Positions 1,954 to 57,165 of a DNA stretch of 64,000 bases are shown piece by piece (the first letter of the stretch is position 1; the number at the start of each line of letters is the position of its first letter). The position numbers and the translations under genes are program-made. A model generated the notes under the pieces. The model had not been told where the DNA came from, did not search any database, and saw only the letters and a list, made by a program, of their open reading frames with translations. The stretch comes from Candidatus Rokuibacteriota bacterium (GTDB taxonomy: Bacteria; Methylomirabilota; Methylomirabilia; Rokubacteriales; CSP1-6), in contig QHSO01000027.1 of NCBI GenBank assembly GCA_003220475.1, positions 530-64,529 on the forward strand, given 5' to 3'.

Positions 1954-3516
1954 CTAGTTCGCGGCGCGCCGCCGGACGAGGGCCACGATCCCGCCCGCGA
2001 GCACGAGACCGGGCAGGATCACCAGCGGCAGCAGCGCGACGACGCGACCCTGCTGGGCGCTGAGGAAGATCGGCGTCTGCTTGGTGTCCTTCGGCCGTAC
2101 CGTGATCTGATCTTCCTCCTCGGCGAGCCAGCTGACCGTGTTCAGGAAGAAGTCGCGGTTGCCCTGCACGTTGAGGAACTGGTTGGTGGCCAGGTTCGAG
2201 GTGCCGTAGACGACGATGCGCGTCTTGTCTTTCGTGACGACCGCGGCGACGGGCAGCGGGCCCTTCGGATCTTGCGGATCCGGCTTGGCCGTCCCCTGCT
2301 CGAGCGCTTGCCGGTCCGTCTCGCCCCACGACTCGGGGCTCGTGCGCGCCAGCGGCTGCACGTTCACGCCGGGCGGCAGTGTCTTCACCGGCGTCACGGT
2401 CCGCGTGAGCGGAAACAGCGTCGTGATACCGGCCAGGTCGCGCGTGATCGGGTGCGGCTCGTACTGCTGGATGATCGGCACCTCCGGCCCGATGCCGAAG
2501 AGCCGGCCGATCGGCGAGAGCTCGACGACGAGGTTGTCGCCAAGGTCGACGCCCCAGCGCGCGAGGAAGCGCTTCATGGCCGCGTCCTGCATCTTCGCCG
2601 GGAACGGCGGGTCCACCATCGCGAGAACCTTGCCGCCTTTCCCGAGGTAGCCGTCCAGGGTGTCCATCTCCGGTGGGAAGAAATCCGTGCGTGGACCGGC
2701 GATCACGATGACGGCGGCGTCCGCGGGAATCGTCGTCGCGCGCGCGAGCACCAGCGGCTTGACCTCGTAGTTGGACTTCTCGAGGGCGCCCTTGGCCTCG
2801 GAGAACCCGGCGCGCTCGGTGTTGCCCAGCTCGTGCTCGCCGTGACCCTGCACGACGTAGACGGACCGCTTGCCCTCGCGGGTCACCTTCAGCAGGCCGT
2901 TGGTGAGCTTCTCCTCCTCGGCGTCGAGCACTTTCTCCGAGCGCGCCTTCGTCTCGAGCACGATCGTGCCGTACGACTCGATGCCGTAGCGGCGCGCCAG
3001 CGCGGGATCGCTGTCGGGATCGACGATCTTCCACGTGAGCTTCTTGCCGGCATAACCCGCGTACTGCTTGAACAGGTCCTCGGCCACGCGCTTGCCGGGC
3101 TGATCGGCGCGGAAGAAGCCGACCATGTTCACGTCGCTCTTGAGGCCTCGCAGCACGGAGACGGTCTGCGGCGAGAGGCTGCGCCGCTTGTTCTCCGTCA
3201 GGTCGACACGATAGCTGTGGCGCGCGGACAGCGCCTCGACGAAGCCGACCACGCCAAGCACGAGCAGGATCGACACGAGGGCATTGAGGCCATAGGACAT
3301 CGTCCGGGCACCGACCTTGCGCCGCGCGCCGGCCAGCCACGGCAGCGCGGACAGCACCACGAGCACGATGCCCGCGGCGACTAGCGGCCACCAGAGCATT
3401 GCGGTCAGGCGCACCGCCCACACCTGCCGACCGTACGTCCCGGTCAGCGTGAGCGCGGTGGCCGCGGCCAGCGCGATCAGCCCCAGATAGAACGCCGCGT
3501 CAGCGAGACGGCGCAT
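1954..3516 (-). CDS. GldG-like ABC transporter auxiliary component
   Basis: Start taken at MRRLADAAFYLG (ATG 3516), 4 nt after the permease stop. N-terminal TM helices, a large periplasmic domain and a C-terminal TM helix. Operon context fits. Confidence 0.8.
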   Translation of the reverse strand: MRRLADAAFYLGLIALAAATALTLTGTYGRQVWAVRLTAMLWWPLVAAGIVLVVLSALPWLAGARRKVGARTMSYGLNALVSILLVLGVVGFVEALSARHSYRVDLTENKRRSLSPQTVSVLRGLKSDVNMVGFFRADQPGKRVAEDLFKQYAGYAGKKLTWKIVDPDSDPALARRYGIESYGTIVLETKARSEKVLDAEEEKLTNGLLKVTREGKRSVYVVQGHGEHELGNTERAGFSEAKGALEKSNYEVKPLVLARATTIPADAAVIVIAGPRTDFFPPEMDTLDGYLGKGGKVLAMVDPPFPAKMQDAAMKRFLARWGVDLGDNLVVELSPIGRLFGIGPEVPIIQQYEPHPITRDLAGITTLFPLTRTVTPVKTLPPGVNVQPLARTSPESWGETDRQALEQGTAKPDPQDPKGPLPVAAVVTKDKTRIVVYGTSNLATNQFLNVQGNRDFFLNTVSWLAEEEDQITVRPKDTKQTPIFLSAQQGRVVALLPLVILPGLVLAGGIVALVRRRAAN

Positions 3517-10793: not shown

Positions 10794-11652
10794 GCTTCGG
10801 CGTGTGTCCGGGTTGCTGCTCGCTCGCTCGCTGGGCGGCGGCTTTCAATTCTTCCCACACGCTCATCGGGACCGGCGGATGACCGAGCTGGTTCGTTCGG
10901 CCACTGCGCTCGCCGTGATAATCCGAGCCGCCGGTGGCGACGAGACGATGGGCGCGGCAGAGGTCCTTGTAGTGCGCCGTCTGCGCCGCCGAGTGCTCGG
11001 CGTAGATCGCCTCGATGCCCAGCAGCCCCGCCTCGATCAGCTCGGGAATGAGCGCGTCGCGATCCGCCAGCCCGGGATGCGCGAAGACCGGAACGCCGCG
11101 CGCGCGGCGAATCAGCCGAACCGCGTCCGCGGGCGTGAGCCGCCTGCGGGGAACGTTCGCGGGGCCGTTGGTGTGCAGATAGCGGTCGAACGCTTCTCGC
11201 ACGGACGTCACATAGCCGCGCTGCACCATCACCTGCGCCACGTGCGGCCGTCCGGCCGAACCCTCCTTCACGAGCGCGAACACTTCGGCGGGATCGATCG
11301 GCATGCCGAGCTCGGCGAGCCGCGCGGCGATGCGATGCACGCGCGCCGCGCGCTCGACACGCTGCTCACGCAGGAAGTCCTGAAACCAGGCCGCCTCGGT
11401 GTCGACGTAGTAGCCGAGGATGTGCACCTCGGCGCCGGGCACGTCGCAATTGATCTCGAGGCCCGGCACGATGGTCAGCGGCGGGTGCCGCGTGGCCTCG
11501 TCGATGGCGTCGCGCAGCCCGTCGGTCGAATCGTGATCCGTCACCGCGAGCACGCGCACGCCGCGCTGCGCGGCCGCCCGCACCAGCTCGCGCGGCGTCA
11601 GTGTGCCGTCGGACGCCGTCGTGTGCGAGTGCAGGTCTACGCCGCCGGTCAT
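10771..11652 (-). CDS. PHP-domain phosphoesterase (TrpH/YciV-like)
   Basis: The VDLHSHTTASDG motif is followed by VLAVTDHDS. 293 aa. Confidence 0.85.
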   Translation of the reverse strand: MTGGVDLHSHTTASDGTLTPRELVRAAAQRGVRVLAVTDHDSTDGLRDAIDEATRHPPLTIVPGLEINCDVPGAEVHILGYYVDTEAAWFQDFLREQRVERAARVHRIAARLAELGMPIDPAEVFALVKEGSAGRPHVAQVMVQRGYVTSVREAFDRYLHTNGPANVPRRRLTPADAVRLIRRARGVPVFAHPGLADRDALIPELIEAGLLGIEAIYAEHSAAQTAHYKDLCRAHRLVATGGSDYHGERSGRTNQLGHPPVPMSVWEELKAAAQRASEQQPGHTPKRTEPGRA

Positions 11653-11658
11653 GTGTAC

Positions 11659-11835
11659 TGGGGGCCCCGAAATGGCCCCCAGACCCCCAGACGCTCGGAA
11701 CCGCGCCGGCGCAGCCGTCGCGGTCCTCGGTCACGGCGTGCGCGACATCGGGGGCCCCGAAATGGCCCCCAGACCCCCCACTGCTCGGAACCGCGCCGGC
11801 GCAGCCGTCGCGGTCCTCGGTCACGGTGTGTTGCG
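11659..11835 (+). repeat. repeat family A, two tandem copies (90-bp period)
   Basis: TGGGGGCCCCGAAATGGCCCCCAGACCCCC...CGCGCCGGCGCAGCCGTCGCGGTCCTCGG occurs at 11659-11730 and 11749-11820. Nearly identical copies, between the pepA stop and the PHP start. Confidence 0.9.
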
Positions 11836-11878
11836 CCCGTGCGCAGCCGTGGCGCGGCTCGGGCTGAGGCCGGACGTA

Positions 11879-13366
11879 TCATTCCCGCGACATCAGATAG
11901 CAGAGCATCGTGCGCACAGGCGCGCCGGTGGCGCCCTTGGGGCCCATCGCCGTGTCCTTCTCGACGAACGCGGGGCCCGCGATGTCCAGGTGCACCCACG
12001 GCCGGTCGGCCGCGAACTCCTTGAGGAAGAGTCCCGCGGTGATGGCGCCGCCGCCGCGCGGGCCGACGTTGTTGAAGTCGGCGACGTCGCTCTTGAGGTT
12101 CTCGCGATACTCGTCGATGAGCGGCAGCTGCCAGACCCGCTCGCCGGCGTTCTCGGCCGCGGCCAGGATACGGTCCGCGAGCGCCTGATCGTTCGCGAAG
12201 AGGCCGGAGCACAACGGGCCGAGGGCGACGACGCAGGCACCGGTGAGCGTCGCCATGTCGACCATCTCCTCGGCGTCGACCTTCTCGGCCGCATAGCACA
12301 TCGCGTCGGCGAGCGTCAGGCGTCCCTCGGCGTCGGTGTTGCCGATCTCCACGGTGGTGCCGTTCATCGCGCGCAGCACGTCGCCGGGGCGGACGGCCCC
12401 ACCTGAGGGCATGTTCTCGGTGGCCGCGATGAGACCGTGCACCTCGACCGGCGGCGACAATCGAGGCAGCGCGCGCATGATCGCGAGGACGGCGGCGGCG
12501 CCCGACATGTCGTTCTTCATCCGCAGCATCCCCTCGGCCGACTTGAGGTCGAGGCCCCCCGAGTCGAACGTGATGCCCTTGCCGATCACGGCCACGCGCC
12601 GGCGCCGGCGGCCCGAGGGCGTGTACGAGAGGTGGATGAACTTCGGCGGCTGCTCGCTGCCCGCGGCCACGCCGAGGAACAGCCCCATGCCCATCTTCTG
12701 GCATTCGGCGCGGTCGAACACCTTGAGCCCGAGCTTCGCCTCTTTCGCGATGTCGGCCGCCACCTTCGCGAGATATGTGGGATGCACGTCGTTGGCGGGG
12801 CTGTTGATCAGATCGCGCGCGAAGCACGTGGCGTCCGCGAAGACCTCGCCGGTGCGCGCGCCGTCGGTGACCTCGCGCCGCCGGCGGGCGTCGGGTTCCA
12901 CGACGCTCAGCGACTCGACGCGTTTTTCGGCCTTCTCGCGCTTGTAGCGGTCGAACGTGTACGCGCCGAGCAGCGCGCCTTCGGTCACCGAGTGCGCGCG
13001 CGAGCGGGCGGGCAGTCGGTCACCCAGCACGTCGATGGCGACGGCCTTCGCGCCGAGGTCGCGCGCACGGCGCAGCCCGCCCGACGCCGCGCGACGCACG
13101 GTCTCGAGCGTCAGGTCCGTGCGCTTGCCGAGGCCGACCACGACGACACGGCCGGCGGGAATGCGGCCGGCGGTGTGCAGATGCGTGACGTGCGCGGGCT
13201 TGGCCCCGAAGCGCTCGGCCTCGAGAACGTTGGACACCTGCCCGTCGAGCGCGCGGTCGACGCGCGCGGCGACGTCGCGCAGCTTGCCCTCCTCCGCGTA
13301 CACACCGATGACGATCGCGTCGGTCCGGCACGTCTCGAGCGGTCCCGCAACAACGTCGATCTTCAC
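11879..13366 (-). CDS. pepA: leucyl aminopeptidase (M17)
   Basis: NTDAEGRL signature and M17 catalytic region. 495 aa. The start overlaps the NUDIX stop (GTGA). Confidence 0.9.
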   Translation of the reverse strand: MKIDVVAGPLETCRTDAIVIGVYAEEGKLRDVAARVDRALDGQVSNVLEAERFGAKPAHVTHLHTAGRIPAGRVVVVGLGKRTDLTLETVRRAASGGLRRARDLGAKAVAIDVLGDRLPARSRAHSVTEGALLGAYTFDRYKREKAEKRVESLSVVEPDARRRREVTDGARTGEVFADATCFARDLINSPANDVHPTYLAKVAADIAKEAKLGLKVFDRAECQKMGMGLFLGVAAGSEQPPKFIHLSYTPSGRRRRRVAVIGKGITFDSGGLDLKSAEGMLRMKNDMSGAAAVLAIMRALPRLSPPVEVHGLIAATENMPSGGAVRPGDVLRAMNGTTVEIGNTDAEGRLTLADAMCYAAEKVDAEEMVDMATLTGACVVALGPLCSGLFANDQALADRILAAAENAGERVWQLPLIDEYRENLKSDVADFNNVGPRGGGAITAGLFLKEFAADRPWVHLDIAGPAFVEKDTAMGPKGATGAPVRTMLCYLMSRE

Positions 13367-13860: not shown

Positions 13861-14620
13861 AGCGCTCGGCGACCAGTGTCTCCACGCGCGCGCTCTCGTC
13901 CGCCGTCAGCCCACCCGGCTCCAGCGTCAGTCCGTGCTCGTCCTCGAACGCGCGCGCAAGCGCATCGGCGACCGCGTCGAACGTCGGCCGACTCCCGAGG
14001 GCGGCCTCGAGCGTGGTGAGTGTCGCGAGCGGATCACGGGTGGTCGGAAACAGCGCGCGCAGGCGCGCGGCATCCGCGCCGAGCAGCACGGCGCCGTGCT
14101 GCAGGAACGACGTGCCGAGCCGCCGCTGCGCGCTGCCGACCAGCTTGCGGCCGCCGACCTCGATCTCGAAGGCGCCGGTGCGCGCGAAACAGAACGCCGG
14201 ATCGGGGCCGAGCCCGCGGCCCGTCGGGACCATCTCCGCGTTCGCGCCCAGGGCATTGATCCCGCGCACGAGCGCACGCGCGATCCAGCGATACGTCTCG
14301 AGCAGATCGGCGCCGACGCCGAGGTCGTCGGCGGTCGCCGTCACGCAATACGTGAGCTCACGCTCCGGGCCGTCGTGGTAAATCGCGCTGCCGCCCGTCG
14401 GCCGGCGCACGAGGCCGACGCCGAAGCGGCGGCACGCGTCGACGTCCACGTGGCGATCGAGCGGCTGGCCGTAGCCGATCGACACCGTCGGCGGATCCCA
14501 GGCGAAGAAGCGCACGGTGGGCGGCGAAGTGCCGGCGTGGCGGCCGCGCCACAGCGTCTCGTCAATCGCCATGTTGGTGGCCCCGTCGCACGGCTCGGTG
14601 ATGAGAAGCCGCCAATTCAT
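13820..14620 (-). CDS. lipoate-protein ligase / octanoyltransferase family protein (BPL/LPL catalytic domain)
   Basis: Begins MNWRLLITEPCDGATNMAIDETLW...VRFFAWDPPTVSIGYGQ. Sits just downstream of the gcv operon. Confidence 0.8.
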   Translation of the reverse strand: MNWRLLITEPCDGATNMAIDETLWRGRHAGTSPPTVRFFAWDPPTVSIGYGQPLDRHVDVDACRRFGVGLVRRPTGGSAIYHDGPERELTYCVTATADDLGVGADLLETYRWIARALVRGINALGANAEMVPTGRGLGPDPAFCFARTGAFEIEVGGRKLVGSAQRRLGTSFLQHGAVLLGADAARLRALFPTTRDPLATLTTLEAALGSRPTFDAVADALARAFEDEHGLTLEPGGLTADESARVETLVAERYGRETFLAAPAHP

Positions 14621-14622
14621 GT

Positions 14623-14692
14623 TGGGGGCCCCGAAATGGCCCCCAAACCCCCAACGCTCGGGACGCCCCGGGAAACCCGTGGCGCCCCTCGG
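14623..14692 (+). repeat. repeat family A copy
   Basis: TGGGGGCCCCGAAATGGCCCCCAAACCCCC...CGCCCCGGGAAACCCGTGGCG...CCTCGG fills the gap between the gcvPB stop (14700) and the ligase start (14620). Confidence 0.9.
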
Positions 14693-14699
14693 TCTCGCG

Positions 14700-16157
14700 C
14701 TAGCGCTTGGGGCTCCACGTGAGGTTCGGCTCGCGGGCGGCGCGCGTCTGGTCGAGACGTCGTACGGGCGTCGTCACCGGCGCCGCGGTGGCGATGGCGG
14801 GGTTCTCCTGCGCTTCGCGGGCGATCTGGATCATCGCATCGCAGAACGCGTCGAGCGTCTCCTTGGACTCGGTTTCCGTCGGCTCGATCATCAGCGCCTC
14901 CTCGACGATCAGCGGGAAGTACGTCGAGGGCGCGTAGAAGCCAAGGTCGAGCAGTCGCTTGGCGATGTCCGTGGCCGTGACGCCCTGCTTCTTCTGCCGC
15001 CGCGCCGACAACACGCACTCGTGCATGCAGGGGCCGGGCACCGAGACGTCGTAGTCCGCCTCGAGCCGCTTCATGATGTAGTTGGCGTTGAGCACGGCAT
15101 TGTCCGAGACGCTGCGCAGGCCGTCAGCGCCCATCGTGCGGATATAGGTGTAGGCGCGCACGAGCATGCCGAAGTTGCCCCAGAAGGCCTGCAGCTTGCC
15201 GATCGACTTCGGCCGCTTGTCGTCGAGCGCGTAGGCGTCGCCGTTCTTGACCACCACGGGCGTCGGCAGGAACGGCTCGAGGTGCGCCTTGATGCCGACC
15301 GGCCCCGCCCCCGGCCCGCCGCCGCCGTGCGGCGTCGTGAACGTCTTGTGCAGGTTGAAGTGGCAGACGTCGAAGCCGAGGTCGCCCGGCCGCGTGATGC
15401 CGAGGATGGCGTTGAGGTTGGCCCCGTCCATGTAGACCTGCACGCCCTTGGCGTGACAGATCTCGGTGATCTCCATGATGCGCGGCTCGAACATTCCCAG
15501 TGTGTTCGGCACCGTGATCATGAAGGCGGCGACGTCCGGCCCCACTTCGCGCGCGAGCGCCTCCAGGTCGACCTCGCCGTTCGGCAGCGACTTCACCTCC
15601 ACGACCTCGTACCCGGCGATCGCGGTGGACGCCGGATTCGTGCCGTGCGCGGAGTCGGGGATGAGGACCTTCGTGCGCTTCTCGCTGCGCGAGGCGTGGT
15701 AGGCGCGGATCATCAGGACGCCGGCGAACTCGCCCTGCGCGCCGGCCGCCGGCTGCAGCGAGACCGCGTCCATGCCGGCGATCTCGGCCAGCATCTGCGC
15801 GAGCTCGTGCATCAGCTGGAGCGCGCCCTGCGCGTCCTCCGGCCGGGTCAGCGGGTGCAGCCGGGCGAAGCCCGGCACGCGCGCCATGTCCTCGTTGATC
15901 TTCGGGTTGTACTTCATCGTGCACGAGCCCAGCGGATAGAAGTGCGTGTCGACGCCGTAGTTCATGCGCGACAGGCGCGAGTAGTGGCGCACGACGTCGA
16001 ACTCCGAGACCTCGGGCAGCGCGGGGGCGGCGCCGCGCAGGAATTTCTTGGGCAGCACATCGGCCAGCGGCCGGCCCGGCACGTCGCTCTCCGGCAGCGA
16101 GAAGCCGATGCGCCCCGGCGACGACAGCTCGAAGACCAGCTTGTCGTAGGCGCTCAT
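14700..16157 (-). CDS. gcvPB: glycine dehydrogenase (aminomethyl-transferring) subunit 2
   Basis: 485 aa, typical GcvPB sequence ([21 protein letters not shown]...). ATGA overlap with gcvPA. Confidence 0.95.
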
Positions 16158-22386: not shown

Positions 22387-23321
22387 CAGGCGATCTCCTG
22401 TAGCTCGACGGCCGCGAGGGCGGCGTCGGACTCTCTGAGCAGGCGGTGGGCGGCGGCGACGTCCACGGCTGTGAAGCGCAGTCGCTGGCCGGGCTTGGCC
22501 TGGCCGACGCGCGCGATGTCGAAGGAGCATACGGTGGCGATCTTCGTATAGCCACCGGTGGACTGGCGGTCCACCAGCAGCACGATGGGCTGGCCATCGC
22601 CCGGCACCTGCACGGCGCCGAGCGCGATGCCGTCGGAGATGATGTCGTGCCCGCCGGCGTGGGCGATGCGCGGGCCGTTCAGTCGCGCGCCCATGCGGTC
22701 CGACTGCGGCAGCACCTCGTACGCCGAGTCGAGGAACGTGACCACGCCTTCATTGGTGAAGCGATCGGCCTGCGGACCCAGCACGACGCGCAGGACGGTT
22801 TCGCCGCCCCAGCGCGGACGCGCGGCCTCGGGCACGGTGCGCGGCCTGGCCGTGCGCGCATGTCCGAGCGGCAGGCGGTCGTCGCGCGCCAGCGCGCGGC
22901 CGTGCACGCCACCCATCCGCCCGCGCAGGTACGTGGCGCGCGAGCCGAGGACCGGCGCCACGTCGATGCCGCCCGCGACGGCGATGTAGCCGCGCACGCC
23001 GGCGCGCGCGGCGCCGATCTTCATGACGTCGCCGGCCTCGAGGGCGAGCGTCGTCCACGTCGGCGCCGGCGCGTCGTTGATGGTCACGGGCGCGTCGGCG
23101 CCGCTGACCGCGAGCGTGCACGGCGTCTCCGCGCGCAGCCGCGGGCCCATCAGCGTGAATTCGAGCGCGGCCGCGCCATCGAGGTTCCCCACGAGCCGAT
23201 TGGCCAGGACGAACGACGAGCGGTCGACGGGACCGGAGGGCGGGATGCCGTAACGCATCTGGCCGGTGCGACCGACGTCCTGCACCGTCGTCTGCGGGCC
23301 GGGCTCGAGGACGCGGATCAT
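22386..23321 (-). CDS. pxpC: 5-oxoprolinase subunit C-like / biotin-dependent carboxyltransferase family (KipA-like)
   Basis: True start MIRVLEPGPQTTVQDVGR at ATG 23321. The 13 extra codons of the track ORF are repeat-A sequence. Confidence 0.85.
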   Translation of the reverse strand: MIRVLEPGPQTTVQDVGRTGQMRYGIPPSGPVDRSSFVLANRLVGNLDGAAALEFTLMGPRLRAETPCTLAVSGADAPVTINDAPAPTWTTLALEAGDVMKIGAARAGVRGYIAVAGGIDVAPVLGSRATYLRGRMGGVHGRALARDDRLPLGHARTARPRTVPEAARPRWGGETVLRVVLGPQADRFTNEGVVTFLDSAYEVLPQSDRMGARLNGPRIAHAGGHDIISDGIALGAVQVPGDGQPIVLLVDRQSTGGYTKIATVCSFDIARVGQAKPGQRLRFTAVDVAAAHRLLRESDAALAAVELQEIA

Positions 23322-23328
23322 CTGTAAC

Positions 23329-23399
23329 TGGGGGCCCCGACATGGCCCCCAGACCCCCAACTCTCGGACGCGCCCCGGCGTAGCCGTGTCGCGCCTCGG
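23329..23399 (+). repeat. repeat family A copy
   Basis: TGGGGGCCCCGACATGGCCCCCAGACCCCC...CCGGCGTAGCCG...CCTCGG lies between pxpB and pxpC. Confidence 0.9.
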
Positions 23400-23415
23400 G
23401 ATCGCGCCACCCGAA

Positions 23416-24123
23416 TCATCGGATCACCGGCGAAAAGCGGCCGGCCGCCACACGCGAAGCGATATCGTCGAACTCGCCGCGCTCGATCCGACGAAAGCGA
23501 ACGCGATCACCGGGCTTCAACAGAATGGGCTCAGCAGCCTCGGGATCGTAGAGCCGCACCGGCGTGCGTCCGAGCAGCCAGAAGCCGCCGGGACTGTCCA
23601 CGGAGTAGACGCAGCACTGGATGCCGCCGATGGCCACGCTACCCGCGGGGACCTTCACCCGCGGTGTGTCCAGGCGCGGGATCGTCAAGCGCTCGGGCGC
23701 GCCGGTCATGTACGGCAGGCCCGGCGTGAAGCCGATGAAGTACACGAGGTACTCCGCGCCCGCGTGCAACCGCACGAGCTCGTCCATCGACAGCTCGAGC
23801 CGCCGCGCGGCGGCCTCGAGGTCGAGCCCGAGCTCGCCGCCGTAACAGCACGGCAACTCCACCTCGCGCGCGGGCGGCATGGCCGTCGTCGTCGTCTGCT
23901 CGGAGAGCGTCGCGAGCTGCGCGCAGAGCGCCTCGTAGCCGACGACCGACGGATCGTAGTAGACGAGCAGCGAGCGGTACGTGGGGACGGTCTCGACGAC
24001 GCCGGGCAGCGCCTTGTGCTCGATCAGGTACTCGAGGGCGCGGACGCGCGTGTTGACCTGCACGCTGATCTCCTCGCCGAGCTCGATGGACACCGCGAGG
24101 TCGCCGGCGGGGAGAAACCTCAA
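23416..24123 (-). CDS. pxpB: 5-oxoprolinase subunit B-like (KipI-like)
   Basis: Begins MRFLPAGDLAVSIELGEEIS...VVETVPTYRSLLVYYDP. 235 aa. Confidence 0.85.
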   Translation of the reverse strand: MRFLPAGDLAVSIELGEEISVQVNTRVRALEYLIEHKALPGVVETVPTYRSLLVYYDPSVVGYEALCAQLATLSEQTTTTAMPPAREVELPCCYGGELGLDLEAAARRLELSMDELVRLHAGAEYLVYFIGFTPGLPYMTGAPERLTIPRLDTPRVKVPAGSVAIGGIQCCVYSVDSPGGFWLLGRTPVRLYDPEAAEPILLKPGDRVRFRRIERGEFDDIASRVAAGRFSPVIR

Positions 24124-41358: not shown

Positions 41359-42528
41359 ATGGAGGAGTTCTACCGGATCAAGCGCCTGCCGCCGTACGTC
41401 TTCGCGATCGTCAACGATCTGAAGACGAAGGCACGCGCCCGGGGCGAGGACGTCATCGATCTCGGCATGGGCAACCCGGACATGCCGACGCCCAAGCACA
41501 TCGTCGACAAGCTCGTCGAAGCCGCCAAGAACCCCAAGAACCACCGCTACTCCGCGTCCCGCGGCATCACGCGACTGCGCCGGGCGATGTCCACGTGGTA
41601 CCGCGACCGCTACGCCGTCGACGTCGATCCGGACTCCGAAGTCATCGCGACCATCGGGGCCAAAGAGGGCATGGCGCATCTCGCGCTGGCGGTCCTGCAG
41701 CCCGGCGACGGCGCGCTGGTACCGAATCCGACGTATCCCATCCACTCGTACTCGGTCGTCATCGCCGACGGCGACCTGCGCTCCGTGCCGCTCACACCCG
41801 ATGGCGACTTCTTCACCCGACTGCAAGAGACCGCGAAGCTGGCGTGGCCGAAAGCGAAGCTGCTGATCCTCTCGTTCCCGCACAACCCGACGACGATGTG
41901 CGTCGAGCGCGATTTCTTCGTGAAGGTCGTGGACTTCGCGCGCGAGCACCGCCTGATGGTCGTCCACGACTTCGCGTACGCGGACTTCACGTTCGACGGC
42001 TACAAGCCGCCGTCGTTCCTCGCCGTGCCTGGCGCCAAGGAGGTCGGCGTCGAGATCTTCTCGCTCTCGAAGTCGTACAACATGCCGGGCTGGCGCATGG
42101 GGTTCGTGTGCGGCAACGCGCGCATGATCGCGGCCCTGGCGCGGATCAAGTCCTATCTCGACTACGGCGCGTTCCAGCCGATCCAGATCGCGAGCATCAT
42201 CGCGCTGGAGGGCGACCAGAAAGTCGTCGACCAGATCGTCGAGGTGCACCGAAAGCGCCGCGACGTGCTGGTGGACGGCCTCAACAAGCTCGGCTGGCAG
42301 GTCGCCAAGCCAAAGGGCACGATGTTCGTGTGGGCCCCGATCCCCGAGCCGTTCCGCGCCATGGGCTCCCTGGAGTTCGCCAAGCTGTGCATCCAGGAGG
42401 CGAAGGTGGCGGTGTCACCCGGCATCGGGTTCGGCGAGTACGGCGAAGGCTACGTGCGCTTCGCGCTCGTCGAGAACGAGCAGCGGATCAAGCAAGCGCT
42501 GCGCGGCCTCAAGCACGTTCACCGGTGA
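41359..42528 (+). CDS. class I/II PLP-dependent aminotransferase (alanine transaminase-like)
   Basis: Starts [25 protein letters not shown]-lysine context [14 protein letters not shown]. 389 aa. Confidence 0.85.
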
Positions 42529-42529
42529 G

Positions 42530-42598
42530 CGGGGGCCCCGACATGGCCCCCGCACCCCCTATGCTCGTCGCGCTCCGGCGTAGCCGTGGCGCTCCTCG
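42530..42598 (+). repeat. repeat family A copy
   Basis: CGGGGGCCCCGACATGGCCCCCGCACCCCC...CCGGCGTAGCCG...CTCCTCG occupies the whole gap between the aminotransferase stop and the hom ATG. Confidence 0.9.
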
Positions 42599-43915
42599 AT
42601 GACGCGCGTCGACGACGTTCGAATCGGACTGCTGGGCCTGGGCACCGTCGGCGCCGGCGTCGTGAAGATTCTCGCCGCGCAGCGACCGATGCTCGAAGAG
42701 CGCGCCGGGTGTCGGCTCACCCTGGCGGCCATCGCCGACACCGACCTCGTCCGGGCGCGTGAAGGTCTGGATCTCAAGGCGCTGCCGATGGTCGGTGACG
42801 CGGCGAAGGTGCTGGCGGACCCGGCGATCCACGTCGTCATCGAGCTCATGGGCGGCCTCGAGCCGGCGCGCACCTTCATCCTGCGCGCGCTCGCCGCCGG
42901 TAAGCACGTCGTCACTGCCAACAAGGCGCTGCTCGCGCATCACGGCGCCGAGCTCTACGAGGAGGCGCGCCGGCGCGGCGTGACGCTGGCGTTCGAGGCG
43001 GCCGTCGCCGGCGGCATTCCGCTCATCCGCTCGGTGAAGGAAGGCCTCGCGGCCAACTCCATCCTGTCGCTGGCCGGCATCGTCAACGGGACGTGCAACT
43101 ACATCCTGTCGAAGATGACCGACGAGAACCTCGACTTCGCGCTCGTCCTCAAGGAGGCGCAGACCCACGGCTACGCGGAGACCGACCCGACGCTCGACAT
43201 CGAGGGCATGGACTCCGCCCACAAGCTGCAGATCCTCGTCTCGCTGGCATTCCGCACGTTCATCGAGCTGAAGGACATCCACACCGAAGGCATCACGCGC
43301 GTCACCGCCGCGGACATCGCGTACGCGCGAGAGCTCGGCTATCGCATCAAGCTGCTGGCGATCGCCAAGGCGGTCGAGGGTGGCGTGGAGGTGCGGGTGC
43401 ACCCCACGATGATTCCCGCCACCTCGCCGCTGGCCGCCGTCTCCGGCGTGTTCAACGCGGTGTTCATCACCGGCGACGCCGTCGGTGATCTCATGTTCTA
43501 CGGGCGCGGCGCGGGCCAGATGCCGACGGCGTCCGCGGTCTGGTCCGATGCGCTCGAAATCGCGCGGCGCATCGCGCACGGCATTCCGTCGCTCGCAATC
43601 GAGCTGCCGTCGGTCGGGCCGGCCGCGCTGCCGCTGCGGCCGATGGACGCCATCCGCTGCTGCTACTACCTGCGCGTGATGGCGCAGGACAAGCCCGGCG
43701 TGCTCTCGCGCGTGGCCGGCATCCTCGGCGAAAACGACATCTCGATCGCGAACGTCATCCAGAAGGGTCGCGGCACGCGCGAGGCGGTGCCGGTCGTGAT
43801 CGTGACCCACGAGGCGCGCGAGCGCGACATGCGCGTGGCGCTGGCGAAGATCGATCGGCTGCGCGACGTCGCGGGCGCCACCACGATGATTCGCGTCGAA
43901 GGCGGACCGGCATGA
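42599..43915 (+). CDS. hom: homoserine dehydrogenase
   Basis: N-terminal GLLGLGTVG NAD fold, catalytic domain and C-terminal ACT domain. 438 aa. Confidence 0.95.
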   Translation: MTRVDDVRIGLLGLGTVGAGVVKILAAQRPMLEERAGCRLTLAAIADTDLVRAREGLDLKALPMVGDAAKVLADPAIHVVIELMGGLEPARTFILRALAAGKHVVTANKALLAHHGAELYEEARRRGVTLAFEAAVAGGIPLIRSVKEGLAANSILSLAGIVNGTCNYILSKMTDENLDFALVLKEAQTHGYAETDPTLDIEGMDSAHKLQILVSLAFRTFIELKDIHTEGITRVTAADIAYARELGYRIKLLAIAKAVEGGVEVRVHPTMIPATSPLAAVSGVFNAVFITGDAVGDLMFYGRGAGQMPTASAVWSDALEIARRIAHGIPSLAIELPSVGPAALPLRPMDAIRCCYYLRVMAQDKPGVLSRVAGILGENDISIANVIQKGRGTREAVPVVIVTHEARERDMRVALAKIDRLRDVAGATTMIRVEGGPA

Positions 43916-45054
43916 ATGCCTCGAAGGGGGGCTCCGCCCCCCTCCGAGCCGCCCCCGCGGATTGCGCCGGCGAAGCCGGCGCTCGAAAGGACCTTCCAAC
44001 GGCGTGGCCGGGAATCATCGAGCGTTACCGGCGATACCTGCCCGTGACCGACAAGACGCCGGTCGTGACGCTGCTCGAGGGGAATACGCCGCTCCTGCCG
44101 GCGCCGCGGCTGGCCGAGGCGACCGATCCGAGCCTGTCCATCTATCTCAAGTGCGAGGGCTTCAACCCGACCGGGTCCTTCAAGGACCGCGGGATGACGC
44201 TGGCGATGAGCAAGGCCGTCGAGGCGGGCTCGCGCGCGGTCATCTGCGCCTCGACCGGCAACACCTCGGCGTCGGCGGCGGCCTTTGCCGCGAGGGCGGG
44301 ACTGCGCGCGTTCGTCATGGTGCCGCGCGGCTCGGTGGCCCTCGGCAAGCTCTCGCAGGCGGCGATCCACGGCGCGCGCGTGCTCATGGTCGAAGGCACC
44401 TTCGACCAGGCCCTCGACATCGTGCGACGTATCGCGGAGTCGCATCCGGTCACCCTGGTGAACTCCGTGAACCCCTTCCGTCTCGAAGGGCAGAAGACCG
44501 GCGCGTTCGAGGTCGTGGATCAGCTCGGTCGCGCGCCCGACTATCACCTGATCCCCGTCGGCAACGCGGGCAACATCACGGCGTACTGGCGCGGCTATCG
44601 CGAGTACCACCGCGACGGCAAGATCGACAGCCTGCCGCGCATGGTCGGCTTCCAGGCCGCGGGGGCGGCGCCGATGTACGAGAATCGCATCATCGAAGAG
44701 CCACGCACGGTTGCGACAGCGATCAAGATCGGCAACCCCGCCTCGTGGGGCCCGGCGCTGGAGGCGGTGAAAGACAGCCGCGGCTGGATCGACATCGTCA
44801 CCGACGAGGAAATCCTCCGCGCCTACCGGATGCTCGCTCGCGAGGAAGGCATCTTCATGGAGCCGGCGTCGGCGGCCACCGTGGCGGGCCTCGTCAAGAT
44901 CGTGAAGGCCGGCCGCATCGAATCGGGCTCGACGCTCGTGCTGACGCTGACGGGCCACGGGCTCAAGGATCCCGAAACCGCGCTCGAGTCCGCGTCGCGG
45001 CCGACGTCCGTCCCTGCCTCGCTCGACGCCGTCCTGGCGCAGCTGGGCCTCTGA
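43912..45054 (+). CDS. thrC: threonine synthase
   Basis: PLP-lysine motif FNPTGSFKDRG. The ATG is in an ATGA overlap with hom. The first ~27 codons are a divergent repeat-A copy. Confidence 0.9.
   Translation: MNASKGGSAPLRAAPADCAGEAGARKDLPTAWPGIIERYRRYLPVTDKTPVVTLLEGNTPLLPAPRLAEATDPSLSIYLKCEGFNPTGSFKDRGMTLAMSKAVEAGSRAVICASTGNTSASAAAFAARAGLRAFVMVPRGSVALGKLSQAAIHGARVLMVEGTFDQALDIVRRIAESHPVTLVNSVNPFRLEGQKTGAFEVVDQLGRAPDYHLIPVGNAGNITAYWRGYREYHRDGKIDSLPRMVGFQAAGAAPMYENRIIEEPRTVATAIKIGNPASWGPALEAVKDSRGWIDIVTDEEILRAYRMLAREEGIFMEPASAATVAGLVKIVKAGRIESGSTLVLTLTGHGLKDPETALESASRPTSVPASLDAVLAQLGL
43925..43990 (+). repeat. divergent repeat family A copy inside the thrC 5' coding region
   Basis: GGGGGGC-TCC-GCCCCCC, then a second C-run (GCCCCC), then the perfect hairpin GCGCCGGC-GAA-GCCGGCGC. 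Same module order as the other copies. Confidence 0.65.
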
Positions 45055-48738: not shown

Positions 48739-50844
48739 ATGACTGACGACGGTCCGCACCGCACCGGAGTAATAGAAGCTGCCGAGCGCCGGTTCCGTGA
48801 TCTCGTGCACGGCGTCGACGCGATCGTCTGGGAGGCCGATGCCGTCTCGCTGGCCTGCACGTTCGTGAGCCAGCGGGCCGAGGAGCTGCTCGGCTATCCC
48901 ATCGAGCGCTGGCTCGGCTCCACCGACATCTGGACGGAGATCATCGATCCGCGCGATCGCGATCGGGTGCTCGCGCGATACGCCGACGCCCTCACCGCCG
49001 AGCGTCCGCTCGAGCACGAGTTCCGCGCGAACACCGCCGACGGCCGCCAGGTCTGGCTGCGCGATCGCGTGCATCCCGCGGAGCGCGGGCGGCTGCGCGG
49101 CCTCATGATCGACGTCACGGAGCACAAGCGCCTGGAGCAGGAGCGGGACGAGCTGCTGCTCCGCGAGCAGGTCGCGCGCAACGAAATGGAGTCGGCCGCC
49201 GAGATGGTGCAGCGGCTGGAGCGGATCACCGAGGCCGCGCTGACGGACCTCTCGCAGGAGACGCTCCTGCGCCGCGTGCTCGAGCGCATCCGTGACGTGC
49301 TGGAGGCCGACATCACGCTGATTCTGCTCCCGACCGAGGACGGGGAATATCTGAGAGTGGTCGGCGCGGTCGGCCTCGAAACCGACGACGACATGCGCGT
49401 GCCGATGGCCGCGAGCCTCAGCGGCCGCATCGCCACCACGCGCCGGGCGCTGCTCGTGGAAGACGCGACGCGCGCCGACGTCGACCTGCCCGCGCTGCGA
49501 CGTGCCCAGGTTCGCTCACTCGTTGGCGTACCGCTCTCGGTCGACGGCCGCATGATCGGCGTCATGCACGCCGCGCGCGTGGCCCGCCGCCGCTTCAGCG
49601 CCGACGATGCGCGCCTGCTCCAGCTGGTCGGCGACCGCCTGGGTATCGCGATCCGCAACGTCCGCCTCTACGAAGCCGAGCGTCGCGCGCGGCTCGCCCT
49701 CGAAGCCGCCGCCCGGCGCGCCGCGTTCCTGGCCGACGCCGTTACGGCACTCGCCGCCGCCGTCGACCCCGCCGACGGCTTGCGCTCCGTGGCACGGCTG
49801 GCGGCGCCGTTGCTCGCCGATTGGTGCGCAGTCGATCTGCGGGATCCTGACGGCGGATTCCGGCGCGTCGCCGTCGTGCATCGCGATCCGGCCGCCGAGG
49901 CGCGCGCGGCGGTACTGCTCGGGCCCGTGGCCGCGCCGACAGCCGTGGGTGTGACGCGCGCGCTCGACACCGGCGCATCCGAGTGGGTCGCCGCCGATGC
50001 CGACGCCGCCGATCTCGTCGTGCGCGGCGAGCCCGACGAGCGCCTCGCCGTGGCGGGCCTGGGTGTCGACGGCTATGTCATCGCCCCCCTCGCCGTCGGC
50101 GGCCGCGTGTTGGGGGCGATCACGTTCGTGGCCGCGCCGGGCCGTAACCTCGGTGAGAGCGAGGCGCGGCTGGCGCAAGATCTCGCACGGCGCGCGGCGC
50201 TCGCCCTGGACGCCGAGCGTCGCCGTGGCCTGACGCGCGAGCTGCTGCAGATGGTCGGCGGCGAATTGCGCGCCCCGCTGGCGTCGCTCGGCCGCGCGTT
50301 GCGCGCGACCGCCGATCCGGCGAAAGCGGGTGCGGTGCGCACCGCGGCGCGGGCGCTGTCGGCGGTTGCCCGCGATGCGCGCGTGGCTGCGCGTTTCGTC
50401 GCCGTCACCCCCGACGCCAACGCACGGCGTGTCGATCTCGGGCACCTCGTGGACGCCGCGGTCAACGCCGTCGCGGACGAGGCGCGTGCCAAAGGCGTCG
50501 ATGTCGAGAGCGCCGTCGAGCGCGACATCGTGGAGGTCACCGGCGATCGTCGCCGTCTACGTCAGGCCGCGCAGCGGTTGCTCGAGACGGCGGTGCGCTC
50601 GACGCCCGCCGGCGGCCGCGTGCGGGCGCGGCTGTCGCGGGCCGGCGCGCACGCGGTGCTCGCGGTCAGCATGGTCGGCGCCAGTGTCGCGCCGACCGTG
50701 GGGCTCCGCTTGAGCGTGGCGCGTCAGCTGGTCGAGTACCACGGCGGGACGCTGACGGCGGTGAGCGAAGGCCCCGGCCCGACGCTGACCGTTTCGCTCC
50801 CACTCGCAGACTGGATCGCTCCCGCTCGCGCGTCCATCTCTTAG
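48739..50844 (+). CDS. PAS-GAF-GAF sensor protein with degenerate histidine-kinase core
   Basis: PAS domain (RFRDLVHGVDAIVWEAD...), two GAF-like regions, then a DHp-like helix and a short HATPase_c-like end (...VEYHGGTL...). The track ORF begins at GTG 48682; ATG 48739 is chosen because TACAAT lies at 48671-48676. Confidence 0.8.
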   Translation: MTDDGPHRTGVIEAAERRFRDLVHGVDAIVWEADAVSLACTFVSQRAEELLGYPIERWLGSTDIWTEIIDPRDRDRVLARYADALTAERPLEHEFRANTADGRQVWLRDRVHPAERGRLRGLMIDVTEHKRLEQERDELLLREQVARNEMESAAEMVQRLERITEAALTDLSQETLLRRVLERIRDVLEADITLILLPTEDGEYLRVVGAVGLETDDDMRVPMAASLSGRIATTRRALLVEDATRADVDLPALRRAQVRSLVGVPLSVDGRMIGVMHAARVARRRFSADDARLLQLVGDRLGIAIRNVRLYEAERRARLALEAAARRAAFLADAVTALAAAVDPADGLRSVARLAAPLLADWCAVDLRDPDGGFRRVAVVHRDPAAEARAAVLLGPVAAPTAVGVTRALDTGASEWVAADADAADLVVRGEPDERLAVAGLGVDGYVIAPLAVGGRVLGAITFVAAPGRNLGESEARLAQDLARRAALALDAERRRGLTRELLQMVGGELRAPLASLGRALRATADPAKAGAVRTAARALSAVARDARVAARFVAVTPDANARRVDLGHLVDAAVNAVADEARAKGVDVESAVERDIVEVTGDRRRLRQAAQRLLETAVRSTPAGGRVRARLSRAGAHAVLAVSMVGASVAPTVGLRLSVARQLVEYHGGTLTAVSEGPGPTLTVSLPLADWIAPARASIS

Positions 50845-51060
50845 CGTCGCGATTCGACGTTAGGTTGGGGGGCCCCGAAATGGCCCCCCAAACCCCCCAG
50901 CGTTCGTCGCGTCCCGGCGAAGCCGGGACGCTCCTCGGTCCTAGCGTCGCGATTCGTCGACTCGAGGTTGGGGGGCCCGAAATGGCCCCCCAAACCCCCC
51001 AGCGTTCGTCGCGTCCCGGCGAAGCCGGGCGCTCCTCGGTCTTCGCGTCAGGATTCGTCC
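50841..51060 (+). repeat. repeat family A, two tandem copies within a ~100-103-bp unit plus a partial third leader
   Basis: The unit is TAGCGTCGCGATTCG...AGGTT followed by GGGGGGCCCCGAAATGGCCCCCCAAACCCCCC...GCGTCCCGGCGAAGCCGGGACGC...CCTCGG. G-runs start at 50867 and 50970. The first unit includes the sensor-gene stop codon. Confidence 0.9.
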
Positions 51061-51099
51061 ACTCTAGCGATGCCGCGGGGCGCGTGCGATCGTCGGCGC

Positions 51100-51585
51100 A
51101 TGCTCGCGTATACGCGCCGCCAGATCGTGCTGCTGTTCGTCGTCGTTGCGGTTGGTGCCGGCGGCCTCGCCATCGATCGCTGGCGTCGCGGCAATCCCGA
51201 CGTCGTCGCCTATCTCGAGTCGCTCGATCGCGCCCCGGCGGCGACGGCGGCCGCGCACGAGCCGGTCGCACAACAACCGCGGCCGCGCACTCGCGCCGAG
51301 CCGCCCACGAGCGCGCCCGTGTCACGCCGGGCGGCGGCGCGCCCCGAGAGCGCGCGCTCGCCGCATGCCCGCGTCGACGACGGCATGCCGCTCGACCTCA
51401 ATCTTGCGAGCGCCGCGGATTTCGCGCGCTTGCCGGGCGTCGGTCGCGCGCTCGCCGCACGCATCGTCGACGTGCGTACGCGCGACGGACCGTTCGGTTC
51501 GGTCGACGATCTCCGGCGCGTGCGCGGCGTCGGCGAGGCCACCCTCGAGCGCCTCAGGCCGCGCCTGGCCGTGAACACGCCGTGA
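51100..51585 (+). CDS. comEA: ComEA-family helix-hairpin-helix DNA-binding protein
   Basis: N-terminal TM helix. C-terminal HhH LNLASAADFARLPGVGRALAARIV...VRGVGEATLERL. 161 aa, or 171 aa from ATG 51070. Confidence 0.8.
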   Translation: MLAYTRRQIVLLFVVVAVGAGGLAIDRWRRGNPDVVAYLESLDRAPAATAAAHEPVAQQPRPRTRAEPPTSAPVSRRAAARPESARSPHARVDDGMPLDLNLASAADFARLPGVGRALAARIVDVRTRDGPFGSVDDLRRVRGVGEATLERLRPRLAVNTP

Positions 51586-55164: not shown

Positions 55165-56169
55165 CTAGCTCTCGTACGCGCGCTCGTACTGCGAGCGCAG
55201 CCGCTCCAACTCCTCCGGGTCCAGCCGCATGCCGAGCGACAGCCCCATCTCGCCCAGGATGGTCTTGATCTCGTTCAGCGACTTCTTGCCGAAGTTCTTC
55301 GTCTTGAGCAGCTCGGCCTCGGTCTTCTGCACGAGATCGGCGATCGTCCGGATGTTGGCCGTCTTGAGGCAGTTCGACGCGCGCACCGAGAGCTCGAGCT
55401 CGTCGACGTTGCGGAAGAGATTGTCGTTGAGCTCGGCGCCGGGCCGCGTCTCCGCGTGGTCGGCATCGTCCTCCTGCGTCGTCGTCTCCGGAAAGTCGGT
55501 CAGGAGATTGAAGTGGTCCTGCAGGATGCGCGAGGCCTCGCCCACCGCCGCCTGCGGCGCCACACTGCCGTCGGTCCACACCTCGAGCGCGAGGCGCTCA
55601 CGCGGCGCGCCGTCCGCCGTCTCGCTGCCCGGCACCGGCTCCACGTGAAAGTTCACGCGCTTGATGGGCGAGAAGTCCGAGTCGAGCAGGATCGCGTTGA
55701 TCGGCAGGGCCTCGGGCTCCCGTTTCTCGGCCGACTGGTAGCCGCGCCCGCGCTCGATGCATACCTCCATCTCGAGCACGCCGTCCTTGTCGAGCGTGGC
55801 CAGCACCACGTCCGGCGTCAGGATCTGCACGTCGGCGTCGGGCTCGAAGTCACCGGCCTTCACCACGCGCGTGCCCTGCGCCTTCAGCCGCAAGATCTTG
55901 GGCCGGTTCACGTTGAGCGCGAACACGACCTTGCGGAGGTTCATCATGATGTCGAGGGTGTCTTCCTGCACGCCGGGCAGATGCGAGAACTCGTGCAGCA
56001 CGTTCTCGATCTTCACCCAGGTCGGGGCGGCGCCGTGGATCGCGGAGAGCAAGGCGCGGCGATAAGCGATGCCGACGGTGAGCGCGAAGCCCGGCTCGAA
56101 CGTATCGATGGCGATCTTGCCGTAGGCGGTGTCGGACCCGCTCCAGTCCCGCGGTAGACTCGAAGAATC
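55165..56169 (-). CDS. rpoA: DNA-directed RNA polymerase alpha subunit, start codon unresolved
   Basis: N-terminal domain ([47 protein letters not shown]) and a canonical alpha-CTD ([21 protein letters not shown]...[12 protein letters not shown]). No in-frame ATG/GTG/TTG near the N-terminus. No flanking ribosomal protein genes. Confidence 0.8.
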
Positions 56170-57165
56170 ATGCGCCTGCGATGGCTCGTCGTCGCGCTCG
56201 CCCTCGCGACCGCCGGTTTCGCCTGGCTCGTGCTGACCCCGTCGGCGGCCGTGCGCCAGGGGCCGCTCATGGTCACGATCCCGCCTCACGAGGGACTGCT
56301 GGGCATCGCCGACCGCCTGGCGCGAGCCCAGGTGATCCGCAGCCGGCCCGCGTTCGTCGTGGCCGCGCTGGTGCGCGGCGTGCCGCGCAGCCTGAAGGCC
56401 GGCGAGTACGAGATCCCGCGCGATGCCACCACCCTGGACATCGTGGTGCTGCTGGAGAGCGGTCGGGTGCGCCAGCACGCCATCCTGCATCCCGAGGGCG
56501 CGACGGTGGCCGAGCTGGCGCGGGCGCTGGAGGCGGAGAATCTGGCGAGCGCCGACGCGGTCGCGCGGGCCGCCATGGACCGCAAGTTCCTCGACGCCAA
56601 CGGCATCGAGGCGGCCAGCGTGGAAGGCTACCTCTTCCCCGACACCTATCAGTTCGTTCGCGGGATGACGCCGGAGGAGATCCTCGGCAAGATGGCGCAG
56701 CGCATGCGCGCGAAGCTCACCCCCGAGATCCACGGCCGCGCGCGCGAGCTCGGGCTCAGCATGCACCAGCTGCTCACGCTCGCCTCGATCATCGAGCGCG
56801 AGGCGATCGTCAAGGACGAGCAGCGTCTGATCGCGGCCGTGTTCTGGAACCGGATGAAGATCGGCATGCCGCTGCAGGCCGATCCCACCGTGCAGTACGC
56901 GGTGGCCAAAGAGCGACGCGCGCTCAGCCGCGCGGACCTCGCCGTCGATCATCCGTACAACACGTACGTGCGTCCGGGGCTGCCGCCGGGACCGATCGCC
57001 AGTCCCGGGCTCGACGCGATTCACGCCGCGCTCGAGCCGGCGCCGGTCAAGTACCTCTACTTCGTCGCGCGCGACGATCGCCGCCACCACTTCTCGACGA
57101 CCATGCAGGAGCACAACTCCGCGGTCACGCGTTACCGGCTCTCGCGCCGTCTCTCGCGTCGCTAG
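56170..57165 (+). CDS. mltG: endolytic murein transglycosylase MltG (YceG-like)
   Basis: N-terminal TM helix, EGYLFPDTY motif and LASIIEREA. 331 aa. Confidence 0.9.

Follow-up and report, generated by a model that had tools for sequence, protein, structure and literature searches.

RIME and other intergenic mosaic elements of the alpha-proteobacteria are about 100 bp long and hold two large palindromes. MIRUs (mycobacterial interspersed repetitive units) are described as GC-rich units of 40–100 bp that lie in the intercistronic spacers of operons, with empty and filled orthologous sites and a variable tandem number (Supply et al., 1997, via PMC12548453 and PMC3184786). MIRUs insert at start codons, and the open reading frame (ORF) that they carry shares bases with the stop codon before it and the start codon after it (−4 spacing), so that translation stays coupled (PMC12548453; PMC3184786). 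The REP (repetitive extragenic palindromic) sequence is defined as a single imperfect palindrome of 20–40 bp that is tagged at one end by GTAG or CGTC (PMC3733652). In this study, we analysed a repeated element of about 70–85 bp with two hairpins in a 64,000-nt stretch of DNA (GC about 70%) from a Candidatus Rokuibacteriota bacterium (contig QHSO01000027.1), which is called the window below. The element behaves like a MIRU in its insertion at gene junctions, its coupling ORF and its tandem variation, and like REP sequences and bacterial interspersed mosaic elements (BIMEs) in its GC-rich hairpins, its distribution and its closeness to stop codons. We consider it rather probable that it represents a lineage-specific family of small, non-autonomous MIRU/REP-like repeats of the Rokubacteria (Methylomirabilota) that insert at gene junctions.

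The 21-nt motif of the first hairpin, GGGGGCCCCGAMATGGCCCCC, matches the window seven times at no more than one mismatch, on the + strand only (starts at 11660, 11750, 14624, 23330, 42531, 50868 and 50970), against 0.01 matches expected from dinucleotide shuffles. An 83-nt covariance model (R1), built from 104 copies out of many genomes (alignment A2), scored the seven full copies at 70–89 bits, with the next-best matches in the window at 20–21 bits. The first-pass annotation had proposed a genuine, dispersed two-hairpin family with eight copies. The family withstands these tests and seven of the copies are full copies at the positions given there, while the eighth (43925–43990) scores only 20 bits and is a sibling variant, and a partial copy at about 11832–11862 had been overlooked. 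The window copies align over about 70 nt, and the alignment upholds the modular layout that had been read from the letters: a short leader, a GC hairpin of 9–10 bp with the loop CCGAMAT (hairpin 1), a second C-run, a linker ending in CTCG[GT], a 13-bp hairpin with a GNA loop (hairpin 2) and a terminal CCTCGR. Hairpin 1 is almost invariant; hairpin 2 varies in sequence while its pairing is kept.

All of the window copies lie on the + strand. Two of them form a tandem pair with a period of 90 bp at the junction of pepA with a gene for a PHP-domain protein, on the strand opposite to this operon (pepA→PHP): copy 1 (11654..11737, core 11659–11730) scores 83.6 bits and has the exact 21-mer, and copy 2 (11744..11827) scores 83.4 bits and is 94% identical to copy 1. 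Comparison of filled with empty pepA|PHP junctions revealed a partial third copy followed by a decayed duplicate of the PHP start at 11832..11881. The partial copy is a hairpin-2-like remnant ending in CTCGG (about 11832–11862), which is also present in a closely related metagenome locus (L120), and the decayed duplicate now provides the stop codon of pepA (TCA at 11879–11881). Single copies fill the gcvPB→lplA spacer (14618..14699, 89.1 bits) and, by the Pfam assignment of its flanks, the spacer between pxpB (CT_C_D) and pxpC (CT_A_B) (23324..23406, 79.5 bits), both antisense to the operon, as well as the spacer between an aminotransferase gene and hom (42525..42606, 76 bits), in sense orientation. 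A second tandem pair, with a period of 102 bp, lies 3′ of a PAS/GAF histidine-kinase gene and 5′ of comEA/comEC-like genes, as assigned by Pfam. Its first copy (50862..50945) scores 86.5 bits, and its second (50964..51046, 70 bits) carries one hairpin-1 mismatch and lacks 1 nt of hairpin 2.

Copies have been gained and lost at orthologous gene junctions. Metagenome loci syntenic with gcvPB-lplA-nudix-pepA-PHP, 80 in all, have zero, one, two or three copies at gcvPB|lplA and zero, one, two or four at pepA|PHP, and the lplA|nudix junction, empty in the window, is filled in three loci (L129, L130 and L172; L-numbers label element-bearing or syntenic loci in other assemblies and metagenomes). The gcvPB|lplA junction is empty in L138, L139, L146, L166 and others, and the aminotransferase|hom junction of L058 (6540–6570) is an empty GTGA overlap. 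Empty junctions consist of overlapping stop and start codons (ATGA, GTGA) or, for lplA, of a start codon within the end of gcvPB. Among the syntenic loci, the copies concentrate in the clade with at least 76% LplA identity. Locally, copies multiply into arrays of one to four tandem units, as counted in short-read assemblies. In L120, whose proteins are 98–100% identical to those of the window, two and four copies (154–319 and 3081–3434) stand against one and two in the window (14618–14699 and 11654–11827), a difference that could be a real change of the variable-number tandem repeat (VNTR) kind or a collapse in short-read assembly.

Other lineages carry unrelated insertions at the gcvPB|lplA junction, namely an 80-nt segment, a 200-nt segment or 0.7–1.8 kb of extra DNA (L134 2641–2721; L131 3801–4001; L126, L128–L130, L135, L142, L156, L179, L193 and L196). 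The 80-nt insertion carries a different hairpin (CGCGGACGCG...CGCGTCCGCG), and the junction looks like an insertion hot spot.

At all four co-directional window sites with clear flanking gene ends, the element is traversed by an ORF whose terminal TGA overlaps the downstream ATG. These ORFs start at the upstream stop codon (ATGA or GTGA) or at the ancestral lplA start, and they span one to two and a half copies. Three-frame translation of the pepA|PHP junction gave an ORF of 78 codons (11649..11882, −) whose ATG overlaps the pepA stop (ATGA), which reads through the remnant and both copies and whose TGA overlaps the PHP start (ATGA). The ORF at the gcvPB|lplA junction (14617..14718, −) starts at a GTG inside the end of gcvPB, which is the lplA start of the empty-site relatives, and its terminal TGA shares bases with the new lplA ATG (14620). 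Between pxpB and pxpC, the ORF (23318..23419, −) runs from an ATGA at the pxpB stop to an ATGA at the pxpC start, and its first residues, MIRV, repeat the N-terminus of PxpC because the target is duplicated there over about 12–21 bp. Upstream of hom, an ORF of 25 codons (42525–42602, +) runs from a GTG overlapping the upstream TGA to a TGA overlapping the hom ATG at 42599. The peptides predicted across the element had been dismissed as mere shadow ORFs, a view contradicted by these four stop-to-start bridges and by the sibling variant, which is encoded as an N-terminal insertion in ThrC.

No Shine–Dalgarno sequence is present between the stable hairpin and the downstream ATG at the bridged window sites, and clear ones are present at other genes in these genomes. 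The coupling geometry needs an inserted length of 2 modulo 3. Among spacers that contain an element, 29 of 55 show the required frame relation, versus 35 of 118 equally long spacers without one (binomial p = 0.002, chi-square p = 0.0125). Strict coupling criteria are passed by 16 of 50 co-directional sites, pepA|PHP of the window among them. Judged from the sequences, the element seems to be tolerated in operons because a short ORF across it passes ribosomes to the next gene.

Taken by description rather than by sequence alignment, and across different phyla, the likeness to MIRUs thus covers GC-rich units in intercistronic operon spacers, empty and filled orthologous sites, variable tandem number (0–3 at gcvPB|lplA, 0–4 at pepA|PHP), and stop/start-junction insertion with an ORF overlapping both genes. 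The differences are also clear. The Rokubacteria element has two strong hairpins, the first near-invariant; it is found in both orientations within operons and also between convergent genes, whereas MIRUs follow the orientation of the operon. Where its target is duplicated, the duplication covers tens of base pairs rather than a tetranucleotide, and its density of seven per 64 kb in the window far exceeds that of MIRUs, of which a mycobacterial genome has about 40–50.

Of 125 copies that could be classified, 80 are flanked by co-directional genes (48 antisense and 32 sense), 40 by convergent and only 5 by divergent ones. The hairpin-1 end is 1–15 nt away from a stop codon or an opposite-strand gene's start codon, and the other end is loosely spaced. 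The elements sit inside the transcription units of ordinary housekeeping operons. Tandem arrays are all head-to-tail with periods of 77–136 bp, and one close inverted pair was noted (L037, 4939− and 5161+). Since seven of seven full window copies lie on the + strand, a replication-strand bias was considered; it was rejected in view of neighbouring sites within loci elsewhere (about 10 same and 9 opposite) and by mixed element orientation on the same contigs. The uniform orientation in the window is probably due to chance, because neighbours elsewhere are as often opposite as alike.

In alignment A2, 93.2% of the cells at paired positions are paired. Ten of the 13 pairs of hairpin 2 show double (compensatory) changes, and the total of 124 compensatory cells compares with 32 ± 4.4 in column shuffles (0 of 500 reach 124) and with 5–16 when the partners are slid. 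A C·T mismatch in the middle of the hairpin-2 stem is conserved in 57 of 104 copies. Wobble-type cells are few (11 G·T and 27 A·C versus 1198 Watson–Crick), so that G·U-type pairs are rare on either strand; the asymmetry between A·C and G·T was considered as a pointer to the strand that folds as RNA and is too weak to decide. The invariance of the hairpin-1 core is set by the search design, which used an exact 21-mer. The hairpin-1 stem extends beyond this core by two or three variable covarying pairs (ATG/CAT, GTG/CAC, CTG/CAG, CT/AG), with a mean of 2.05 covarying pairs versus 0.76 in shuffled pairings. Both strands fold to two hairpins at −38 to −47 kcal/mol, with z-scores of −1.6 to −3.0 that are unremarkable at this GC content.

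Two other kinds of copy were seen. In composite copies, hairpin 1 and the linker are separated by an additional hairpin module, GAAGGGGGCTNNCGCCCCCCTCGGANTCCCCCGG (L016 7761–7882, L103 6390–, L006 6000–, L073 6979–7102, L129 2630–2753 and L130). In L074 (1664–1748), L078 (1930–1997) and L096 (843–916), a second hairpin of another type, GCGATCGAGC-NNGGG-GCTCGATCGC, comes after hairpin 1 and the C-run; hairpin 1 therefore occurs with more than one partner module.

Duplications of the target, 12–68 bp long, bracket recent insertions: about 26 bp at pepA|PHP, about 12–21 bp at pxpB|pxpC, 21 bp in three copies around the two elements of the window kinase site (50839–51063), 13 bp in L094, an exact 46 bp in L009 and about 68 bp in L086. 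At the kinase site, local alignment of the flanks showed that the direct repeat TCTTAGCGTCGCGATTCGACG (50839..50859, about 50939–50959 and about 51043–51063, +) brackets each element, its first copy including the kinase stop codon. In a local-alignment test of the flanks, 8 of 126 sites exceeded the 99th percentile of control pairings and the remainder gave nothing detectable. A general short target duplication of fixed length was rejected by an exact-match test of 39 single copies (5.85 versus 5.60, no signal). Terminal inverted repeats are absent: TGGGGGCC... at one end and ...CCTCGR at the other do not form an inverted pair. The leader includes TGA in 44% of copies and TTGA in about 19%. 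The AT-rich 12 nt to the left of hairpin 1 was considered as all element or all target, and the evidence is mixed: a TCGA/TTGA-containing leader recurs, yet the duplicated target at pepA|PHP directly abuts the stem.

In the reading that we favour, insertion would hit compact junctions at which stop and start codons overlap (ATGA/GTGA), and the target duplication would regenerate both gene ends. A copy would persist when its length puts an ORF from the upstream stop in frame to end on the downstream start, and ribosomes on this bridging ORF may open the hairpins before re-initiating, a mechanism also proposed for the MIRUs of mycobacteria. Where genes converge, the hairpins probably serve as transcript-end or stability structures. 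The near-invariant hairpin 1 would most likely be the recognition site of a trans-acting copying protein.

Several observations weigh against this reading. The frame enrichment is moderate and rests on a crude codon-usage gene caller, only about 16 of 50 co-directional sites satisfy the strict coupling test, and stop-free frames are expected by chance in DNA of 75% GC. Only about 10% of sites have detectable flanking duplications, which are too variable in length for any standard transposase. The copied unit appears to have imprecise ends, since the subfamily-specific extra modules look like old flanks carried along; fragments of old flanks (GATTCGTTCACGGGCTCTGA, GGTTGACACAGGATGTCTCAY and CCCGCGTGCTCAT) recur in non-orthologous loci. 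No mobilising gene was found near the copies or among the 59 predicted window genes, and no such copying protein has come to light. A tblastn search for a Y1/HUH transposase across about 0.92 Mb of element-bearing loci from 119 sources, a weak test with IS608 TnpA and E. coli RAYT as queries, gave only matches with E > 1. The copy-number differences between the near-identical contigs of the window and L120 may also reflect short-read assembly collapse. Transposase genes were looked for between oppositely oriented copies (L034, L058 and L087), and these intervals hold only ordinary metabolic genes; seemingly large gaps adjoining elements in L026, L032 and L017 proved to be gene-caller artefacts.

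A family of REP/BIME sequences in the strict sense would have hairpin 1 or 2 as the REP, recognised as single-stranded DNA by a REP-associated tyrosine transposase (RAYT, an IS200/IS605-type Y1 HUH enzyme) that is encoded once elsewhere in each genome and excises and inserts the units. Like the REP/BIME sequences of Enterobacteria, Pseudomonas and Stenotrophomonas, the element is a high-copy, GC-rich imperfect hairpin structure that lies extragenically between co-directional or convergent neighbours, whose stop codons it often touches or provides, with occasional intragenic copies, mosaic clusters and lineage-specific families (PMC3733652). The C·T mismatch conserved in hairpin 2 makes this hairpin imperfect, some hairpin-2 stems begin with CGTC, the near-invariant loop and stem of hairpin 1 suggest protein recognition, and the scarcity of G–U pairs fits a DNA hairpin or use in two orientations. 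The anatomy is different. The unit is a fixed pair of unlike hairpins over 70–85 bp instead of a tagged palindrome of 20–40 bp; GTAG stands beside neither stem, and CGTC at hairpin 2 is confined to some subfamilies. Clusters are direct tandem arrays and not the inverted pairs of REPINs or BIMEs, and Y1 single-strand transposition yields no long target duplications such as those seen here. The lack of a shared orientation between neighbouring copies, compared with each other and not with the direction of replication, argues against a strong strand bias, and the weak tblastn search showed no Y1 transposase near any copy. We therefore regard strict membership in the REP/BIME class as unlikely. 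Minimal (PATE-like) elements derived from IS200/IS605 have two subterminal hairpins and insert 3′ of a fixed tetra- or pentanucleotide, with a strand bias and without duplicating the target; in the family described here two hairpins are likewise present, but duplications exist, the orientation is mixed and the TGA/TTGA leader is limited to the fractions given above.

It is about equally unlikely that the element is a host cis-acting structure (a protein-binding site, for example, or a double hairpin that stabilises or terminates mRNA) that is selected at each site and has spread only incidentally. Compensatory change that keeps the pairing, two stable hairpins on both strands and the avoidance of divergent promoter regions would be expected of such a structure, and the orthologous copies at gcvPB|lplA are 82–93% identical between lineages in which the 4-fold sites of lplA are 46–70% identical (near saturation). 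Nevertheless, non-orthologous copies inside the window are also about 80% alike, so that closeness to the consensus is no proof of site-specific selection, and with both similarities high, selection, gene conversion and re-insertion are inseparable. Every site examined shows presence/absence variation, and related species manage without the element at the same junctions. The two orientations are about equally frequent and the hairpin-1 loop is nonetheless invariant, which is hard to fit to a single RNA function, and the folding z-scores are unremarkable for the GC content.

An unconventional copy-and-insert process without a classical transposase, either reverse transcription of hairpin-protected mRNA with target-primed insertion or template switching of replication at the hairpins, would suit the long and very unequal duplications (12 to about 68 bp), the lack of terminal inverted repeats, the imprecise unit ends with their recurring flank fragments and the location within transcribed operons. 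We hold this to be improbable, more so than either of the foregoing alternatives. It is purely inferential, with no reverse transcriptase linked to the element and no donor–recipient pair identified. DDE transposases of the IS1634/IS1549 type also make long variable duplications, so the duplications alone demand no new mechanism. A bolder form, to which we give marginally more credence while still thinking it doubtful, would combine imprecise copying and insertion (by reverse transcription of operon RNA or by template switching) and tens-of-bp duplications with survival filtered by a read-through ORF that restores coupling, and would make the family a bacterial counterpart of short interspersed elements (SINE-like) across a candidate phylum.

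The idea that the repeats encode a selected small protein or peptide module (GGPEMAP...) is close to refuted by the heterogeneity of frame and orientation. ORFs do cross the element, an NTG triplet (ATG, GTG, CTG or TTG) precedes hairpin 1 in 66 of 142 copies and the thrC variant is translated within ThrC. Copies occur, however, in both orientations and in different frames, G/C runs that differ in length by 1–2 nt put copies in different frames, stem pairing with the CAN opposite accounts for the NTG, and the bridging peptides differ by site. A CRISPR array, a riboswitch, a tRNA-like element and an integron attC site were set aside on anatomy (housekeeping context, both orientations, no spacer–repeat regularity and no cassette array).

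Miniature inverted-repeat transposable elements (MITEs) such as Correia/NEMIS and ERIC are also small, non-autonomous and structured, show insertion polymorphism and can supply expression signals; the Rokubacteria element differs in having neither terminal inverted repeats nor a short duplication of fixed length, its duplications ranging from about 12 to about 68 bp. As the tag, the single palindrome and the inverted clusters of REPs were not found, nor the inverted ends and the fixed short duplication of MITEs, "REP/BIME/MITE-like" describes the behaviour of the element and not its membership. With RIME it shares a unit of about 100 bp with two palindromes, a strictly intergenic setting and restriction to one lineage; sequence and host are unrelated, and to our knowledge neither coupling ORFs nor long duplications have been reported for RIME. 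Rickettsia palindromic elements (RPEs), which are tagged by CGTC (PMC3733652), are palindromic repeats in frame inside coding genes and in this resemble the thrC variant; they are about 100–150 bp long and mostly intragenic, whereas intragenic copies are the exception in the Rokubacteria family.

This sibling variant (43921..43993, +; 20 bits, E = 0.034) lies at the beginning of thrC. In place of hairpin 1 proper it has a different first hairpin, GGGGGGC-TCC-GCCCCCC, followed by hairpin 2 and a TCGA end. The first-hairpin module also occurs as the extra part of composite copies (L016, L103 and L129), and the segment at 43925–43990 is therefore a related variant and not a plain copy. It follows the hom/thrC ATGA overlap, in frame after the first thrC codons, and encodes residues about 4–28 of a 380-aa ThrC (ORF 43912–45054). 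Since the conserved WPGIIERY motif has no other start codon ahead of it, the variant must be read in frame. Most rokubacterial ThrC proteins have 352 aa and begin with MSAWPG..., while a subclade with 87–100% identity to the window protein has an N-terminal insertion of 18–34 residues with in-frame length variants. One ThrC of the comparison (P0004) has an internal duplication within the insertion.

The pattern search across genomes and the Rfam search that the first-pass annotation had suggested were both run. An exact 21-mer scan of one genome per species found at least 118 stretches in at least 45 species-level metagenome-assembled genomes (MAGs), and nearly all of the assemblies among the matches listed are labelled Candidatus Rokubacteria, Rokuibacteriota or Methylomirabilota. 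The window proteins are 77–87% identical to those of Rokubacteria MAGs, which marks the window as rokubacterial too. Repeat-bearing contigs also occur in bins with other labels, namely Nitrosotalea, an archaeon (L093), Acidoferrum (L009 and L051), Binatia (L114) and Anaerolineaceae (L094); these contigs in bins of unrelated phyla are probably mis-binned. Viral contigs (0 matches) and plasmids gave no match to the repeat. Rfam 15 gave no match in the 64-kb window at the gathering threshold, the best relaxed matches (E ≥ 1.2) being at chance level, and the searchable literature held neither the element sequence nor a mention of such repeats in Rokubacteria. The family thus apparently has not been described so far, in line with the view that it is none of the known ones.

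The 59 predicted genes of the window, called by a simple codon-usage caller and annotated with Pfam, are ordinary housekeeping genes. Those around the copies are gcvT-H-PA-PB, lplA, a NUDIX gene, pepA and the PHP-domain gene; pxpB and pxpC; the aminotransferase gene, hom and thrC; and the PAS/GAF histidine-kinase and comEA-/comEC-like genes. Pfam domains of transposases, integrases and reverse transcriptases are absent from the 59 genes, in agreement with the first-pass statement that the window holds no transposase. The frame of the comEC-like gene (51618–53864) is open upstream across both repeat copies to a TTG at 50865, giving an ORF of 999 aa (50865–53864, +); this extension is probably a by-product of high GC, and automatic annotation could over-extend the gene over the repeats. 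An ORF with RNA polymerase alpha-subunit domains (55165–56952, −) has 595 aa as called, with the RpoA domains beginning only at residue 286; a mis-called start or fusion with an upstream gene may account for this.

Rokubacteria, which are uncultured and abundant in soil, have unusually large genomes, of which 8–17% is reported to be non-coding (PMC5712423). The repeat family is a concrete, high-density part of this non-coding fraction and probably also causes contigs to break and repeats to collapse in Rokubacteria MAGs. The 21-mer and the covariance model together provide a lineage marker that could flag contigs that are probably mis-binned, and VNTR-type markers for telling strains apart may be had from the tandem arrays. 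The long variable duplications and the near-invariant hairpin 1 point to a trans-acting factor or mechanism. If the reading proposed here is correct, the family would be a second, independent case, in an unrelated phylum, of the solution used by MIRUs, in which a throw-away ORF lets a repeat invade ATGA-type overlaps without silencing the downstream gene, and termination–reinitiation coupling over very stable hairpins would become directly testable.

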